From IMG/VR virus record IMGVR_UViG_3300036660_000031, positions 1 to 64,000 of that record: a stretch of DNA of 64,000 nt; one strand, 5' to 3'. The notes under the pieces were generated by a model. It saw nothing but the letters and a program-made list of their open reading frames with translations, was not told the origin of the DNA and made no database searches. Of the stretch, positions 8,317 through 22,696 are shown in pieces (the stretch's first letter is position 1; every line of letters begins with the position of its first letter). Position numbers and translations under genes: made by a program. The DNA comes from a virus. Lineage: Duplodnaviria; Caudoviricetes.

Positions 8317-9424
8317 AAAGGAACTGGACAAAACAAAGATCAGTATCTTTCTTGGTTCTACTGCTGCACTGCTTGGCAACATCATGTGCAGCTTTGAAAT
8401 CGTATTTGATAGTCGTCCTAAGACTGCTCAAATCGGTAAGCGAGTCATTCGCTGGAATCCTGATTGGTTTACAGCTTGCACTGCTAAAGGACGTATCTTT
8501 ACTTTGCTCCATGAGTTATGGCACATTGCTCGACTGCACCGTGTTCGTCGTGGAACCAGAACACATAAGCGGTGGAACATTGCTTGTGACTATGTAATCA
8601 ACGAAGGACTTGCTAAAGAAGGTTACGCATGTGGCTCTGATGATTTAGGTGGAATCGACATTTGCCTAGATAAACAGTACTACGGTATGACTGAAGAGCA
8701 AATCTATGAGTTGCTTCCACCTGATGAAGACGAAGAAGGTGATAGTACTAACAGCATGGATGACATGCCTCCTTCAGACGAACCAGATGAAGAACCAAGT
8801 GATGTACCTATTGTGGTACGAGCTATTGAAGCTGCTAACCAAGCAGGTTCTCCCGGTGGTTTACCTATAGAAGTAGTTAAATTCATTGCTGCTTATCTCA
8901 ATCCAGTTGTGCCTTGGCAGAACCTATTGAATAAGTTCTTCAATGATCTAGCTGAAACTCGTCATACGTGGAAACGTCCTAGCAGACGCTACACAACCAT
9001 GTACCTACCTTCTAGGTACAAAGACGAAGGTAAGCTTGCAAAGCTTAACTACTACTTAGACATATCTGGCTCTGTCACACAGAAAGACATTCTCAGATTT
9101 AACTCTGAATTTGATTATGTGAAGCGTACTTATGCTCCTAAAGAAATGGTACAGATACTCTTTAATACTCACATTATTAAAAGAACTGTAATTAAAGACA
9201 GTGATTTATTCACTGACTCAATCATCAGAACAGGTGGTGGTACATCTCTCTACCATGTCCGAGAGGACATTATTGAAAGTAAACCTACTGCTGCCATCAT
9301 CTTCACAGACTTGGAATGCTCGCCAATGGCTACCCTGCCATTCAGCGTACCAATTATCTGGGTAATTGTTGGCAAAGTAAAAAACCCTGTCCCGTTTGGA
9401 GTACCTGTGTACATAGACTTATGA
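8297..9424 (+). CDS. Metallopeptidase-like + VWA-like protein (N4 gp25-like)
   Basis: HELWH (HExxH), WNIACDYVIN, acidic linker, MIDAS-like DISGS, GGGT, FTD. Confidence 0.88.
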   Translation: MNLALLEKELDKTKISIFLGSTAALLGNIMCSFEIVFDSRPKTAQIGKRVIRWNPDWFTACTAKGRIFTLLHELWHIARLHRVRRGTRTHKRWNIACDYVINEGLAKEGYACGSDDLGGIDICLDKQYYGMTEEQIYELLPPDEDEEGDSTNSMDDMPPSDEPDEEPSDVPIVVRAIEAANQAGSPGGLPIEVVKFIAAYLNPVVPWQNLLNKFFNDLAETRHTWKRPSRRYTTMYLPSRYKDEGKLAKLNYYLDISGSVTQKDILRFNSEFDYVKRTYAPKEMVQILFNTHIIKRTVIKDSDLFTDSIIRTGGGTSLYHVREDIIESKPTAAIIFTDLECSPMATLPFSVPIIWVIVGKVKNPVPFGVPVYIDL

Positions 9425-17062: not shown

Positions 17063-17532
17063 ATACGTTCGACCTTGGAATAGAGGTGAAAGAAACTCTA
17101 TTGGAGCCAGAACACAAAGCATTTCAACGCAATGTGGAAAGCTTAGTAATACGAAACACTGATGATCCTTCAGTGTTGGCCTTTATGTATAACGGAGTTG
17201 TTTTCAACGCTGCTACTGCTAAAAGACCTATTCGTAATGCAATTTCTCTTTCGTTGCATCTAACAGATGAAATGAAAGATAACGTGCATATGCTAAAGCT
17301 GGCAACACGAGATGCTCAAACAGTATGGCAAGCATTGCTTCCACTTGTAGAAGCGCACGGCCCTCAAAATGGATTACCTGAGAATTTGAAAGCTATCTTG
17401 CGATCAAAGTTCTCTCCCCGAACTACTCCTTTTGAGGAAATCATAAAAGACACTACTGAGTTATTCCTTAAAAATTGGATGGATGCTTCCAATCAATTGG
17501 CTTACCTCATTTCACTAAGAATAGTAATTTAA
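17059..17532 (+). CDS. Conserved hypothetical protein (N4 gp38 position)
   Basis: 157 aa between helicase and polymerase, overlapping both by stop/start. Confidence 0.7.
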   Translation: MNTFDLGIEVKETLLEPEHKAFQRNVESLVIRNTDDPSVLAFMYNGVVFNAATAKRPIRNAISLSLHLTDEMKDNVHMLKLATRDAQTVWQALLPLVEAHGPQNGLPENLKAILRSKFSPRTTPFEEIIKDTTELFLKNWMDASNQLAYLISLRIVI

Positions 17533-19613
17533 TGAGACACATACTTTTTGGTGATTCCACCATTTCAAAAACAGTCTGCATACTCTCCGTGTACTTAAAC
17601 AAGGTAGAGATGGTTAAGACTTATATGACTCCTTTTGGGCTAGATGAAGATGCTTTCATGGCTGTGGACTTGTACCAAGACCCCCAGAAAAAGAAAACTG
17701 CTAAGGCCGTACTAAAGGAATATACAACTACTGACTTGCTGCCTTTGTTCCATGAACAAGACATTAAGTATGTACTGTGTACCGATGCTGAGTACTTTAA
17801 AGTGCTCACTGGTGTCATGAAGGTGGACATTAACTTAGGGTATGTACTCCCCTGCTCATACGATCCAACTATCCATGTGGCTTACGCCCCATCTTATAAA
17901 GCGGTGTTCTATGATCCAGCATCAGCAAAGCCCAAGATTGAAACAGCTATGCATTCTCTTGGGAACCATATGGAAGGAGGATACAAACCTCCCGGCGACA
18001 ACATCATCAAGTTTGAAGCCTATCCAAACACTGTGCAAGAAATCAGCGGTTGGCTGGACAAGCTACTCGCAATGGATTGTCCACTTACCTGTGACATTGA
18101 AGCCTTCAGTCTCAAGCACCATACGGCAGGAATCGGTTCCATTTCATTCTCTTGGAACCAACATGAAGGAATCGCTTTTCTGGTGGACTATTTACCTACC
18201 GGGGATGGTGTCTCGGCTCCCTTTGGTTCACAAATAAGCAATGGGCCTGTACGTGAACTATTAGCAAACTTCTTCATGCAAATGAAGCACAAGGTGATTT
18301 ATCACAACATAGCATATGACGCTTATGTGCTGATCTATCAATTGTTCATGGCTAACATCATTGACACTGATGGCCTGCTTAAAGGCATCAATATCTTGCT
18401 TGGTAAGTGGGACTGTACCAAACTCATTTCCTATTTGGCTACCAACACTTGTGCTGGTAACGAGCTAGGTCTGAAGGTCCAAGCCCAGGAATTTGCTGGC
18501 AATTGGGCTGTTGAAGAAATCAAAGACATTACAAAGATTGAACCAACAAAGCTACTCAAGTACAACTTAGTGGATGCTCTATCTACTTGGTATGTGTATA
18601 ACAAACACCAACCAACTATGGTAGCTGATCAACAGCTAGAGATATACGAGACTCTGTTTCAACCAACTACTGTTGACATCATACAGATGCAGTTAACAGG
18701 CATACCTTTGAACATGGTACGTGTGCTAGAAGTAGAGGTAGAACTGCAAGCTGACTATAACAGTGCTGTTAATCGTATCGCCAATTGTTCCTTGGTTCAA
18801 GACTTTGCGTATCAACGCAAGCTCAATTGGATCAAGACAAAGAATGCTGGCTACAAGAAAAAAGTTATCGGTATGGCTGAAGCTAATGCTGAGTTGCTTA
18901 AACCAAAAAATGATGTTCGGTGGAATCCAAACTCATATCCCCAAGTACAGGAACTGCTTTATGAAATGATTGGCTTGCCTATCATTGAACTAACTGACAA
19001 TAAGCAACCAGCGGTTGACGGTGAGACTATTCAGAACCTGAAGAATCACACTACAGATCAAAAAGTTTTAGACTTGTTAGACGCATTTTCAGACTACGCT
19101 GCTGTAAATAAGATCGTGACGGGATTTATTCCTGCCATGAAGTGTGCAGCCCTTGGGCCTGATGGATGGCACTATCTGTTCGGTAACTTCAATCTTGGAG
19201 GTACGCTATCAGGCAGACTATCTAGTAGTAACCCTAACTTGCAGAACCTGCCTGCTAATAAAAAGAAAGGTCAAAAGGATTTTGCAAAGCTAATTAAATC
19301 ATGTGTTGAAGCCCCTCCCGGATGGTTGTTTGTTGGTCTGGACTTTGCTTCACTTGAAGATAGAATCTCGGCTCTCACAACAAAAGACCCAAACAAACTA
19401 ACGGTTTATTTAGAAGGTTTTGACGGCCACAGTTTAAGAGCACAGACTTACTTCAGTGAGGCAATGCCAGATATTGAACGTGCCCCCACTGGAGCCAAGT
19501 GCTACAAGGCGCTAGTTGGTACACAGGAAATTTACTTTCATGATCATGAAACCATCATGTACATGGGGAAAACCGTGACAGGCACTGAACTTGTTCAGCT
19601 ATTGTCTTTTTAA
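17532..19613 (+). CDS. polA: Family A DNA polymerase, N-terminal fragment (3'-5' exonuclease, thumb, motif A)
   Basis: Exo DIEAFS, YHNIAYD, YNLVDALST; SGRLSSSNPNLQN; motif A GLDFASLEDR; stops before motifs B and C. TAATG overlap gives start 17532. Confidence 0.92.
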   Translation: MRHILFGDSTISKTVCILSVYLNKVEMVKTYMTPFGLDEDAFMAVDLYQDPQKKKTAKAVLKEYTTTDLLPLFHEQDIKYVLCTDAEYFKVLTGVMKVDINLGYVLPCSYDPTIHVAYAPSYKAVFYDPASAKPKIETAMHSLGNHMEGGYKPPGDNIIKFEAYPNTVQEISGWLDKLLAMDCPLTCDIEAFSLKHHTAGIGSISFSWNQHEGIAFLVDYLPTGDGVSAPFGSQISNGPVRELLANFFMQMKHKVIYHNIAYDAYVLIYQLFMANIIDTDGLLKGINILLGKWDCTKLISYLATNTCAGNELGLKVQAQEFAGNWAVEEIKDITKIEPTKLLKYNLVDALSTWYVYNKHQPTMVADQQLEIYETLFQPTTVDIIQMQLTGIPLNMVRVLEVEVELQADYNSAVNRIANCSLVQDFAYQRKLNWIKTKNAGYKKKVIGMAEANAELLKPKNDVRWNPNSYPQVQELLYEMIGLPIIELTDNKQPAVDGETIQNLKNHTTDQKVLDLLDAFSDYAAVNKIVTGFIPAMKCAALGPDGWHYLFGNFNLGGTLSGRLSSSNPNLQNLPANKKKGQKDFAKLIKSCVEAPPGWLFVGLDFASLEDRISALTTKDPNKLTVYLEGFDGHSLRAQTYFSEAMPDIERAPTGAKCYKALVGTQEIYFHDHETIMYMGKTVTGTELVQLLSF

Positions 19614-19618
19614 ACAAC

Positions 19619-19642
19619 ACCACCTAACTAGGTGGTTTTTTT
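19619..19642 (+). terminator. Intrinsic terminator directly after polA N-fragment
   Basis: ACCACCT-AACT-AGGTGGT followed by T run. Confidence 0.85.
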
Positions 19643-19655
19643 AGCTTCACATAAC

Positions 19656-21578
19656 ATGACTATAGAACAAACAATATTTGAAACACCACAACAGGAATAC
19701 ATCGCTAAAAGCAAATACGCCCGGTATTTAGATAAGGAAAAAAGACGAGAAACATGGGGAGAAACTGTTCAACGATACTTCGATTTTGCCCATGAACACA
19801 TTGAAGAAAAGTTTCCACAAGCTTCGACTAAATGGCATGAAGTTGAAGCAGAAATGCAATATCAAGTTTTCTCCTTGAGAACCATGCCCTCAATGCGATT
19901 GCTAATGACTGCTGGTGAAGCAGTTAAACGCAACAACATTGCAGCCTACAACTGCCACTATGCTGCTATCGACAAGGTACGCAAATTTAGTGACATGCTG
20001 TTGATTCTCATGCACGGTACTGGCTCAGGCTTTTCATGTGAACGACAAGCAATTGCCAAGCTACCGGCAGTACCTGACACAGTGAATAAGACAGACGATG
20101 TAATCGTTGTCAAAGATTCCAAAGAAGGTTGGGCAAATGCTTTTAGCATTCTGCTTCGCCACCTTTATCAAGGTGCTATTCCAAAAATTGACTACTCCAA
20201 AGTACGCCCTAAAGGAGCACGCCTCAAAACTTTTGGTGGTCGTGCTTCTGGTCCTGAACCACTGAAGAAACTATTTGATTTTGTTAGCAACTTGTTTCTT
20301 CATGCGGCTGGCCGTAAGCTGACTTCATTGGAAGTCCATGATATTTGCTGCTTGATTGCAGACATTGTGGTTGTCGGTGGTGTACGCCGTTCTGCACTTA
20401 TCAGCCTGAGTAATCTGTCTGATCTGCGTATGCGTGATGCTAAAGAAGGTCAGTGGTGGACTGCTCACGGACACCGTGGTTTAGCTAACAACTCTGCCGT
20501 ATATACAGAACGTCCTGAAGTGGAAATCTTCATGGCTGAATGGTTGGCTCTTATCAAATCCAAGTCTGGTGAGCGTGGAATCTTCAACCGTCAAGCTGCT
20601 AGAAAGCAAGCTGCACGTTGGGGCAGACGTTCGGCTGATGCAGATTATGGATGCAATCCATGCTCTGAAATTCTGCTGCTGTCTAACGAGATGTGTAATC
20701 TTACTGAAGCTGTAATCCGTAAGGGTGACAGTTATGAAGTTATTAAAGAGAAGATTCGTATAGCAACCATTATGGGTGTCTATCAGTCTTCACTGACAGA
20801 CTTCAAAGGTGTAGATGCAGAACTGCAACGCAATTGTGAAGAAGAACGTCTGCTTGGTGTGTCCATGACAGGCGTGATGGATCACGAAATCCTGAACAAC
20901 GTAAACCCAACAGCTATTCAATGGCTGGAAGACTTGCGTGATTATTCCCGTGAAGTGGCAACAGAATGGGCTGGATACTTTGGTATCAATGTCTCTGTGG
21001 CTATCACTTGCAATAAGCCTTCAGGCACTGTGGCTCAACTCACTAATGCTGGCACTGGCGGTTTACATCCACGATTCGGTAAGCATTACATTCGTACCTA
21101 TCGTCAAGACAACAAAGACCCATTGACTCAGTTCCTTAAAGAACAAGGTATTGCATGGGAACCAAGTGTGACTAAGCCAGAGACTGAAACTATTTTCAGC
21201 TTTGTAGTGGAGTCTCCTGATGGTGCAGTGATGCGTGATGATCGTACTGCGATAGAACAGTTAGAGCATTGGCTCATGTTCCAACGTCACTGGTGTGAGC
21301 ACAAGCCTTCAATCACTATCTACGTCAAAGACCATGAGTGGCTAGAAGCTGGTGCATGGGTATACAAACACTTTGATGAAGTCTGTGGAGTAAGCTTCTT
21401 GCCTTTTGATAATGGTTCGTATCGTCAAGCACCGTTCCAAGAAATCACAAAAGAAGAGTACAGGGAATTCATTGCCAAGTACCCCGGCACGATTGACTGG
21501 AGTAAGTTTGTTGAACTCGATGACATGACCGAAGGTGGTCAAGAACTAGCCTGCACTGGCGGTGCTTGCCTGATCTAA
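19656..21578 (+). CDS. nrdJ: Class II (adenosylcobalamin-dependent) ribonucleotide reductase, monomeric type
   Basis: MPSMR, TFGGRASGPEPL, GGVRRSA, NPCSEI, CNLTE, KPSGT, PSITIYV, GVSFLP, C-terminal CTGGAC; no NrdB in window. Confidence 0.9.
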   Translation: MTIEQTIFETPQQEYIAKSKYARYLDKEKRRETWGETVQRYFDFAHEHIEEKFPQASTKWHEVEAEMQYQVFSLRTMPSMRLLMTAGEAVKRNNIAAYNCHYAAIDKVRKFSDMLLILMHGTGSGFSCERQAIAKLPAVPDTVNKTDDVIVVKDSKEGWANAFSILLRHLYQGAIPKIDYSKVRPKGARLKTFGGRASGPEPLKKLFDFVSNLFLHAAGRKLTSLEVHDICCLIADIVVVGGVRRSALISLSNLSDLRMRDAKEGQWWTAHGHRGLANNSAVYTERPEVEIFMAEWLALIKSKSGERGIFNRQAARKQAARWGRRSADADYGCNPCSEILLLSNEMCNLTEAVIRKGDSYEVIKEKIRIATIMGVYQSSLTDFKGVDAELQRNCEEERLLGVSMTGVMDHEILNNVNPTAIQWLEDLRDYSREVATEWAGYFGINVSVAITCNKPSGTVAQLTNAGTGGLHPRFGKHYIRTYRQDNKDPLTQFLKEQGIAWEPSVTKPETETIFSFVVESPDGAVMRDDRTAIEQLEHWLMFQRHWCEHKPSITIYVKDHEWLEAGAWVYKHFDEVCGVSFLPFDNGSYRQAPFQEITKEEYREFIAKYPGTIDWSKFVELDDMTEGGQELACTGGACLI

Positions 21579-21582
21579 GCTG

Positions 21583-21620
21583 AAAGACAAAGCCCGGAAC
21601 ACTCTGGGCTTTGTTTCTTT
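21583..21620 (+). terminator. Intrinsic terminator after nrdJ
   Basis: AAAGACAAAGCCCGGA-ACAC-TCTGGGCTTTGTTTCTTT. Confidence 0.75.
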
Positions 21621-21645
21621 GGTTCTAACACTCAAGGAGATACTT

Positions 21646-21840
21646 ATGGAAATCATTGAACAGGGTCAACTACCAGAAGAAAAAGAGTACACCGCAAAGT
21701 GTTCTAACTGCCAAACCAAATTCAAGTTTCAAGCTAAAGAAGCTCTTGGTCGTAATTGCAATCGTAATGAAAGCTACCTGAGTGTAATTTGCCCTTACTC
21801 TAAATGCGGTAAACAAGTGTATGTAGAAGTCCAATGTTAG
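21646..21840 (+). CDS. Small Zn-ribbon protein (64 aa)
   Basis: CSNC...CPYSKC; AAGGAG SD before ATG 21646. Confidence 0.75.
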   Translation: MEIIEQGQLPEEKEYTAKCSNCQTKFKFQAKEALGRNCNRNESYLSVICPYSKCGKQVYVEVQC

Positions 21841-22568
21841 TCATTGATCAACTTATCGCAGCAGTCACTGAAGTGACTGTTAGTGAGCACGATGTAGCTC
21901 GTATCAATTCCATTGAAGTACATTACAAACCCAAACGACAAGATAGCAAAGCACCAACCTTTGCACTGACATACCAAGGTACTTGGTCAACACTGGTCAA
22001 GAACTGTGGCTTCTCACCTCAAGTAGCTAAAGAAATTGAACAAAGATACCACGGACTCTATGCTGTCAGTACTGAGTGGGTACAAAAGAAACTGAACCAA
22101 GCAGCTAAGGAAGGGTACATCACAGGTGCATTCGGCCTGAGACTGCGTACTCCTTTGTTGGCTCAAGTTGTACGGGGTAATCGACAGACTCCCCGTGAAG
22201 CAGAGGCTGAAGGCCGTACTGCTGGTAATGCGTTAGGTCAAAGCTGGTGTTTACTAAACTCACGAGCTTGGGCTGCAACTATGAAAATTGTCCGTGCTAG
22301 CCCTTATAGGACGACGATCAGACCTTGTGCCCAAATCCATGACGCTGGTTATGCTTTGGTTCGTGATGACATTGAACCAATCATGTTTTTGAATGAGCAT
22401 CTTGTACGTGAAGTTCAATGGAACAATCACCCCGATATTTACCACCCTGAAGTTGGATTAGGTGGTGAACTCTCTATTTTCTATCCAACATGGAAAGATG
22501 AAATTGGTATCCCAAATGGGGCCACTGAAGATGAAATATTTACTATAGTAAAAAAGGTATTTTCATGA
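21834..22568 (+). CDS. polA: Family A DNA polymerase, C-terminal fragment (motifs B and C)
   Basis: Motif B RQDSKAPTFALTYQG, GAFGLRLRTP, EGRTAGNALGQS, motif C QIHDAGY. Confidence 0.92.
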   Translation: MLVIDQLIAAVTEVTVSEHDVARINSIEVHYKPKRQDSKAPTFALTYQGTWSTLVKNCGFSPQVAKEIEQRYHGLYAVSTEWVQKKLNQAAKEGYITGAFGLRLRTPLLAQVVRGNRQTPREAEAEGRTAGNALGQSWCLLNSRAWAATMKIVRASPYRTTIRPCAQIHDAGYALVRDDIEPIMFLNEHLVREVQWNNHPDIYHPEVGLGGELSIFYPTWKDEIGIPNGATEDEIFTIVKKVFS

Positions 22569-22696
22569 AGCAATTTATAAAAGATAACGTGGCATTCTGC
22601 GTGCTGCTTACTTGTGCTGCTATCGCTTTGATAGTATTCAGCCAAGTCATGACAGCAATTGGTATCCTCGTTGTCGCCACATTCACGTTAAAATAA
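22565..22696 (+). CDS. Small membrane protein (43 aa)
   Basis: Hand-read MKQFIKDNVAFCVLLTCAAIALIVFSQVMTAIGILVVATFTLK; ATGA overlap. Confidence 0.55.
   Translation: MKQFIKDNVAFCVLLTCAAIALIVFSQVMTAIGILVVATFTLK

Follow-up and report, generated by a model that had tools for sequence, protein, structure and literature searches.

How can a phage obtain a working DNA polymerase from a gene that is broken in two between the catalytic motifs of one active site, and why does a ribonucleotide reductase (RNR) gene lie inside the break? Both questions are raised by the polA locus of a 64,000-nucleotide stretch of phage DNA, referred to here as the window, which corresponds to positions 1 to 64,000 of the IMG/VR virus record IMGVR_UViG_3300036660_000031. 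The source record is 73,147 bp long and has direct terminal repeats. Its closest relatives are N4-like phages (Schitoviridae), with about 65-68% DNA identity over polA and best protein matches that are also N4-like; the terminal repeats, a genome size of the ~70-75 kb class and the order of the replication module (helicase, gp38-like, polA ... exonuclease, primase), which is syntenic with gp37-gp43 of N4, agree with this placement. Here, we argue that polA was probably split by a homing-endonuclease-type cassette, that the separate halves would reassemble into one polymerase and that the RNR gene, nrdJ, is best explained as cargo of the slot between them.

The polymerase is encoded by two open reading frames (ORFs), which contain the following parts:

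17532..19613, plus strand: N piece of polA, 693 amino acids, with the 3'-5' exonuclease, the thumb, the palm with motif A and the first fingers helices
about 19335-19364, plus strand: motif A, GLDFASLEDR, in the N piece
19479..19610, plus strand: tail, the C-terminal extension of the N piece, 44 amino acids (RAPTGAKCYKAL...ELVQLLSF), with no counterpart in unsplit polA
21834..22568, plus strand: C piece of polA, 244 amino acids, with the fingers O-helix, motif B, palm motif C and the C-terminus
21834..21884, plus strand: head, the N-terminal extension of the C piece, 17 amino acids (MLVIDQLIAAVTEVTVS)
21936-21980, plus strand: motif B (RQDSKAPTFALTYQG), in the fingers O-helix of the C piece
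22332-22349, plus strand: motif C, QIHDAG, in the palm part of the C piece

All three motifs of a family A polymerase are thus present with their catalytic aspartates, but divided over two ORFs. The N piece matches positions 21-202 of the 381-position Pfam profile DNA_pol_A (PF00476; E = 9.7e-21) and the C piece positions 203-305, with the break at 202|203, while the exonuclease family PF01612 is matched weakly on the N piece (E = 0.0023; 18.2 bits, under the curated cut-off of 23.6 bits). N4 gp39, a single protein of 859 amino acids, is 53% identical to the N piece (up to E633) and 61% identical to the C piece. Homology to it ends in the N piece at ...MPDIE, where the 44 non-homologous residues of the tail begin, and resumes in the C piece at HDVARINSI, after the 17 non-homologous residues of the head. 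The break falls after gp39 E633 in the fingers subdomain, ~40 residues past motif A and ~20 ahead of motif B. The N-piece ORF spans 17475 or 17532 to 19613, and ATG 17532 aligns with M1 of gp39 and overlaps the stop codon of the upstream ORF. The C frame is closed upstream by an in-frame TAA at 21810, after which ATG 21834 is the first start codon, and the C piece runs uninterrupted, with no translational bypass insert. A preliminary description of this DNA had proposed an N-terminal ORF with exonuclease, thumb and motif A that stops at 19613, a separate downstream ORF with motifs B and C behind an in-frame TAA, two undecayed halves and an N4 counterpart made as one polypeptide; the ORF list, the Pfam matches (PF01612 below its cut-off) and the alignment to gp39 agree with it on each of these points, and every catalytic motif is kept.

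Misassembly, a concern voiced in the same description, was checked against a second ice-metagenome sample from another study (X2), whose contigs are identical to the window across both junctions (19484-20454 and 21496-22684). The order N piece, nrdJ, C piece also occurs in at least six other assemblies, and with the identical junctions in X2 this means that the locus is not a misassembly. Two further sequencing runs (X3 and X4) cover the stretch partially; the runs in which this DNA makes up a high share are exclusively ice metagenomes, and small shares occur in sediment metagenomes. No RNA data set is listed among the runs that contain the sequence. That the split polymerase is inactive debris, with another polymerase replicating the phage, or an assembly artefact is scarcely credible, given the identical X2 junctions, an architecture common to many independent assemblies, the retention of all catalytic motifs in both halves and the conservation of the halves across hundreds of clusters; the purifying selection on the extensions described below also speaks against it. 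In the searches run here, no occurrence of this split site came up outside metagenome assemblies: among 50,697 deposited phage genomes the full tail was matched in none, and no sampled C-piece match began at the head.

The recurrence of the split becomes apparent when relatives are compared. When the C piece was used as query for proteins of comparable length, 1429 stand-alone homologues, 134-427 amino acids long, were retrieved; of the best 120 of these, most are 243-257 amino acids long, many lie on contigs of 65-76 kb, and ~95 share the start column and a related head pattern (ML.I.......EV...EH[D/N] or variants). Ninety-one loci, numbered here with the prefix L, were fetched and the polA halves located in each, which gave 65 loci with a continuous polA, in which motifs A and B are 70-74 residues apart, and 24 split loci (24/89). 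Wherever polA is split at this site, the N piece ends in a tail and the C piece opens with a head. In 16 aligned split loci, the tails form three alignable sequence types (A, B and C), each with its own head type, and tails and heads are 40-50% identical across lineages. The distance between the two ORFs varies from -4, 21, 27 and 64 bp, without cargo, through 180-700 bp to as much as 1.7-3.0 kb.

These distances bear on the alternative that the 2.4-kb insert is an ORF-carrying self-splicing intron, so that a spliced mRNA would encode one polymerase. Group I introns that carry endonuclease ORFs are indeed known from phage polA genes (cited in PMC2677866; proposed for phage JA-1 in PMC3670811), and the N frame stays open beyond the point where homology ends, which is common for exon frames at introns. 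However, the non-coding stretches within the gap of the window measure just 18-67 nt, the -4 to 64 nt gaps of relatives are too small for a ribozyme, and the tail and head evolve as proteins and keep 40-50% identity across lineages. An Rfam covariance scan of 19300-22100 with E up to 10 gave no group I or group II match and chance matches only, although divergent phage introns can escape Rfam. In the loci with the shortest gaps an intron is excluded, which leaves two polypeptides or, in L022, readthrough. Since the two ORFs of these relatives are almost directly adjacent, splicing cannot be what generally restores the polymerase; for the window, we consider an intron highly improbable. A two-subunit polymerase is the best reading of these sequences, and a reasonable hypothesis. 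In L022 (6107-6109), and also in L023, the two halves lie in the same frame with a single TGA and 16 codons between them, and stop-codon readthrough could yield a full-length chain too.

Evidence that the split is the work of a mobile element comes from relatives. In a maximum-likelihood tree of the polymerase domain, from which tails and heads were excluded, at least nine gains or losses of the split at this site are required, and several split clades pair, with good support, with unsplit sister genomes. The closest comparison is between L045 (split) and L030 (unsplit), which share 94-96% DNA identity on both flanks, with 109 nt of L030 replaced by 894 nt in L045. This 894-nt tract consists of a tail, an HNH gene, a head, the opening ~35 C-piece codons and an insert of 48 nt, and since the two genomes are near-identical outside it, it represents the recent insertion or loss of a discrete element. 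Repeated insertion at one site beside near-identical insert-free genomes is accordingly a property seen in the relatives, and extensions on both halves are seen in the window itself. An HNH endonuclease is absent between the polA halves of the window and present in L045, L064, L092 and L094, and the window is for this reason best described as an endonuclease-free derivative, not as a complete element.

What fills the slot was identified by Pfam and PHROGs, and differs from lineage to lineage:

L045, L064, L092, L094: HNH/NUMOD4 endonuclease in the gap
L067:7092-7598 and L083:8541-9008: Tad2-like cargo (E = 2.6e-17 and 8.6e-25)
L078:2008-2451: Acb2/Tad1 hairpin-domain cargo (E = 1.1e-10)
L050: HD protein resembling deoxynucleoside monophosphate phosphatases
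L005: six small ORFs of no assigned function
window, L003/L004, L006-L009, L092, L093: nrdJ

Since relatives hold unrelated cargo, or none, at the same break, nrdJ is best explained as interchangeable cargo in a mobile-element hotspot. In L092, a close relative, the gap contains nrdJ followed by the HNH endonuclease, and in L003 an HNH endonuclease lies at a second polA break further upstream. The gap nrdJ of L003 (4034-6937) is itself unusual in encoding 967 amino acids with a LAGLIDADG_3 domain, which looks like an intein within the cargo gene. The mapping of the break against Schitoviridae polA and the survey of gaps in relatives had been put forward in the preliminary description, and gave the position after gp39 E633 and gaps with nothing, an endonuclease, counter-defence-like genes or nrdJ. 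Its proposal of a polymerase assembled in trans with its deoxynucleoside triphosphate (dNTP) supply enzyme encoded inside the break survives in part: assembly in trans is probably the best explanation, because relatives keep both ORFs with gaps of -4 to 64 bp, whereas the pairing with nrdJ is not supported, because the cargo varies.

In the window, the gap contains an intact nrdJ and a Zn-ribbon ORF, as had been described, with revised starts at ATG 19656 and ATG 21646:

19619..19643, plus strand: hairpin after the N-piece stop, 7-bp stem followed by seven T, terminator-like (folding free energy -10 kcal/mol, z -2.45)
19656..21578, plus strand: nrdJ, adenosylcobalamin-dependent class II RNR of the monomeric ribonucleoside-triphosphate reductase (RTPR) type, 640 amino acids
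21585..21616, plus strand: strong hairpin downstream of nrdJ, which resembles a terminator or may be an element of RNA stability (folding free energy -24.1 kcal/mol, z -5.55)
21646..21840, plus strand: Zn-ribbon ORF, 64 amino acids, CxxC...CxxxxC, with an AAGGAG ribosome-binding site at 21634-21639

Judged by its residues, nrdJ is an intact class II RNR of the RTPR type. The Pfam RNR-II insertion (PF21995), barrel and alpha domains are matched, and in comparison with PDB 1L1L the catalytic Cys/Asn/Glu, including the thiyl-radical Cys of NPCxE, the redox Cys pair and the C-terminal Cys pair are all kept: NPCSE, CNL, NC(H) and the C-terminal CTGGAC align to C408/E410, C419, C119 and C731/C736. 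The match to the RTPR family TIGR02505 (E = 1.4e-87) scores 294.6 bits, below the equivalog cut-off of 340, so that the substrate may be a nucleoside triphosphate or a diphosphate. Translation of nrdJ probably begins at ATG 19656 (640 amino acids) rather than at GTG 19632, which is also possible. The 64-residue Zn-ribbon protein, which probably starts at ATG 21646, matches phrog_2834, a function-unknown family (E = 9.2e-07); it has no Pfam or NCBIfam match, shows no similarity to the endonuclease of L092, and has no equivalent in the other nrdJ-bearing relatives. Its TAG overlaps the ATG of the C piece (caATGtTAG), and this overlap, together with the good AAGGAG site, suggests that translation of the C piece is coupled to it.

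Is the position of nrdJ inside polA itself selected, for co-transcription or for a physical coupling of dNTP synthesis to the polymerase? The order N piece, nrdJ, C piece is kept across a clade (window, L003/L004, L006-L009, L092 and L093) with 73-85% protein identity, and nrdJ is the sole RNR of the 73,147-bp genome, both of which would fit. Against this, other lineages have unrelated or no cargo at the same site, and at least one unsplit N4-like genome (L069) keeps nrdJ elsewhere, ~7.7 kb downstream. The gene resembles a self-contained expression unit, because hairpins bracket it on both sides, and its nearest relatives, which are 55-57% identical, come from phages of unrelated groups (MEP401/402, PaMx25/NP1-like, HMO-2011 and CRP roseophages). 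We therefore regard selection for this position as unlikely.

If the halves work together, the two extensions are candidates for holding them together. Both are translated and under purifying selection as protein: the ratio of non-synonymous to synonymous proportions (pN/pS) is ~0.15 for the tail, at a pS of 0.5-0.8, and ~0.35-0.5 for the head. AlphaFold models were made of a natural 84-amino-acid middle piece of a relative, consisting largely of a head and a tail (predicted local distance difference test score, pLDDT, 77), and of the L022 polymerase domain read through its in-frame TGA (pLDDT 65-74 for the module). In both, the tail is predicted to form four short strands and a helix and the head one or two strands, whereas the surrounding fingers are helical, and because of these helical surroundings the head strand most plausibly pairs with the tail sheet. 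The tail and head may thus make up a small shared beta-sheet module that clamps the halves together. Comparisons with known folds gave little: a Foldseek search with the middle-piece model returned nothing at E <= 0.001, with T4 topoisomerase II (8yo3_C) appearing only at E = 1.9, and VIA-align with the same model reached at best Z 4.0, to chemokine and PH-like small sheets, which is below noise level. Weak structural leads in the Atlas lie in viral topoisomerase, helicase and RNR clusters, including a viral GyrB-like cluster of 502 amino acids with a template-modelling score of 0.59 over 42 residues. In searches of two protein sets (5.8 billion and 1.84 billion entries) with the tail profile, those matches that could be interpreted, with the mid-size ones checked, were polA N pieces and middle pieces; no other enzyme family was found in these two sets, and a few long multi-stretch matches look like noise.

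BLAST and MAFFT repeatedly aligned the start of the tail (19479-19520, RAPTGAKCYKALVGT) to motif B (SKAPTFALTYQGT) of unsplit polymerases. The idea that RAPTGAKCYKA in the tail is a decayed copy of motif B (KAPTFALTYQG) is unsupported, as a profile comparison with hhalign gave a probability of 0.1, and the similarity may be chance.

Extensions of this kind, on either side of a break in an element-like setting, could also be a very small split intein that joins the halves covalently by protein trans-splicing. Homologous tails and heads do occur at a second polA site (before DGYDGHSLRA), a Cys occupies one fixed position in about half of the tails, with an aromatic residue next after it, and the heads end in [H/F/Y][D/N]. 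Counted on the same side are the GDTVALPDG-like strings of type B and type C tails, which we take to resemble intein block A, and the longest-coverage structural alignment of the middle-piece model, which is to a circularly permuted Npu intein but is weak (Z 3.5 over 72 residues, below noise). Known Hint domains, however, comprise ~125 amino acids or more over both parts, and tail and head together amount to only ~61. The head is followed by an invariant Val (V21 in A2), which is no nucleophile, and the tail Cys, although present in the window, is A, V, T or P in L022, L028, L032, L062, L067, L078, L083 and L089. The TxxH block is absent, and the last head residue is often D and not N (HD, HN, FD, FN and YN endings). 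The tail profile finds no intein among PDB sequences, with a chance match only, and fold searches reach Z 3.5 or lower for inteins, with nothing above noise. Trans-splicing is on this evidence very unlikely, if a little less so than an intron.

We return, then, to separate halves that reassemble. In the proposed model, a cassette analogous to the T4 mobA element would insert between motifs A and B, within the fingers, and would bring a cargo slot together with an extension for each half: ~44 amino acids and a stop codon for the upstream one, a start codon and ~17 amino acids for the downstream one. The halves would be translated separately, the C piece probably by coupling to the Zn-ribbon ORF, and would reassemble non-covalently into one active polymerase, with the beta-sheet module of tail and head presumably holding them together. 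In this phage, the endonuclease would have been lost and the slot now be filled by nrdJ and the Zn-ribbon ORF; nrdJ would act as an ordinary auxiliary gene for dNTP supply, its site reflecting the position of the hotspot and not a mechanistic link. Several points weigh against this model. The window is without an endonuclease, and its mobile-element origin is read from relatives; the pairing of tail and head comes from modest-confidence models of relatives, not from the type A module of the window in its polymerase context; tail and head types co-vary, but they are inherited together on one cassette and their co-variation is for that reason not an independent sign of binding; and the two terminator-like hairpins between the halves mean that the stoichiometry of N and C pieces could be uneven.

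The break described here has company. A second split site, before DGYDGHSLRA and with similar tails and heads, is found in L047, L090, L091, P0038 and others, and in some cases polA is in three pieces (L003:3759-4013; L050:7713-7988; P0124-P0134, P0174, P0183 and P0186). Middle pieces of 84-96 amino acids comprise a head, ~20 polymerase residues (YDGHSLRA...MPDIE) and a tail, and longer ones of 125-168 amino acids start at breaks further upstream, one of them at motif A. P0123 (903 amino acids) and P0101 (303 amino acids) represent a continuous polA that retains a shortened tail-head insertion of 38 amino acids at the break and looks like a gene re-fused after loss of the cassette; a 90%-identical relative is split instead at the upstream site.

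In some relatives, motif B of the C piece is interrupted by in-frame stop-containing inserts, namely in L045, L064 and L092, which have HNH/NUMOD4 genes in the gap, and in L033, the gap of which has no long ORF. Those of L092 (5922-5985) and L045 (9127-9192) are 48 nt long and lie between Thr ACC and Thr ACT, the latter preceding TAT/TAC CAA/CAG GG; they differ in sequence, contain hairpins of 14 or 11 bp (-32.5 and -32.9 kcal/mol, z about -6) and have a purine-rich GGGA or AGGA run ahead of the ACT landing codon. L033 and L064 (about 9100-9125) have an identical 6-nt TAGCTT after CCT within differing flanks. P0050-52 and P0064 (190 and 204 amino acids) begin just past motif B, which indicates that gene callers split these genes there. 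By analogy with T4, the inserts look like candidate programmed ribosomal hops that would protect the element from its own endonuclease.

Taken with the extensions and the cargo slot, they lead us to suggest, at slightly less than even odds in our own estimation, that N4-like phages host a second, undescribed mobA-like family consisting of a tail, an HNH cargo slot, a head and a motif-B hop insert of 48 or 6 nt, in which the adaptors would let a two- or three-piece polymerase work, the break would serve as a hotspot for the exchange of accessory genes such as nrdJ and genes countering Thoeris and CBASS defences, and the window would be an endonuclease-free descendant with nrdJ. The main interest of the locus lies in its portable adaptors, in the hotspot for cargo and in the hops proposed for relatives. 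It is unusual for a family A polymerase to have one active site distributed over two polypeptides, the first with motif A and the second with motifs B and C. If tail and head are adaptors, they would be compact natural devices for protein reassembly and an alternative to introns and inteins for tolerating an insertion; until now, rescue of this kind has been proposed chiefly for the topoisomerase of T4. The break behaves as a gene-exchange hotspot inside an essential and highly conserved gene, a stable homing-assisted landing site for nrdJ, Tad2-like and Acb2/Tad1-like cargo, and bears on how accessory genes and counter-defence genes spread among phages. Should the inserts in motif B be true hops, programmed bypass would not be confined among phages to the T4 gene 60 lineage.

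How does this locus compare with known systems? The nearest in host and gene are the N4-like Vibrio phages JA-1 and VCO139, in which the DNA polymerase is split by an HNH gene and for which an intron was suggested (PMC3670811), in keeping with the statement in the preliminary description that split polA genes with homing endonucleases occur in N4-like phages. The family, the gene and the HNH between the halves are shared, but the JA-1 break is elsewhere (pieces of 559 and 332 amino acids compared with 693 and 244 here), and neither phage has metabolic cargo. In our search of the literature, no report was found of an RNR in the gap of a split N4-like polA. In MEP401-type phages of OM43 bacteria, the family A polymerase is divided over two ORFs that lie on either side of a small ORF of no assigned function (PMC10580990), and the nrdJ of these phages is among the closest relatives of that of the window; they belong to another phage group, and their nrdJ is not inside the polA break.

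Other enzymes have been broken in comparable ways. In Aeromonas phage Aeh1, MobE splits NrdA ('genes in pieces'), and GIY-YIG genes divide the gp43 family B polymerases of T4-like phages (both summarised in PMC2677866). As proposed for polA, a free-standing endonuclease splits an intein-less replication or nucleotide-metabolism enzyme, the pieces of which reassemble into active enzyme; the enzyme and the break are different, however, and in polA the break lies between catalytic motifs of one active site, occurs in multiple lineages and is a cargo site. The fractured genes of environmental phage-like DNA, with split inteins and free-standing endonucleases, described by Dassa et al. in 2009 (PMC2677866), likewise combine a broken replication enzyme with an endonuclease gene in the gap and additional short peptides at either side of it, but their extensions are complete, splicing split inteins, whereas the defining residues and size of an intein are absent here.

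The closest known system appears, by analogy, to be the mobA element of T4. As Bonocora et al. are said to have described (PNAS, 2011), this element splits the large subunit of T4-type topoisomerase II into genes 39 and 60. It consists of a conserved C-terminal extension, an HNH endonuclease, a conserved N-terminal extension, a short target-homologous stretch and a 50-nt bypass; many independent insertions lie beside near-identical parental genomes, and the endonuclease can be lost, or the gene re-fused, with the extensions kept (bioRxiv 10.1101/2022.08.31.505936). Manning and Atkins propose that such extensions are a general means of rescuing split ORFs, while stating that MobA elements and bypass are exclusive to Topo2L (bioRxiv 10.1101/2022.08.31.505936), and in a cryo-electron microscopy study the topoisomerase insertion of ~70 amino acids was called an assembly chaperone (PMC11461880). 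The polA loci resemble this system in that HNH cassettes have entered an essential replication gene again and again at the same place, with unsplit near-twins; in conserved extensions on both ORFs (~70 amino acids in T4, ~61 here); in loss of the endonuclease with the extensions kept and apparent re-fusion with remnants, as in P0123; and, among relatives, in a short stop-containing insert a few dozen codons into the second ORF, which in polA is a candidate bypass only. They differ in that the target is a family A polymerase of N4-like podophages and not a myovirus topoisomerase, and the window differs further in having neither the endonuclease nor the bypass insert. Unlike the T4 element, the polA slot has taken up large cargo other than endonucleases, including nrdJ, Tad2-like and Acb2/Tad1-like genes.

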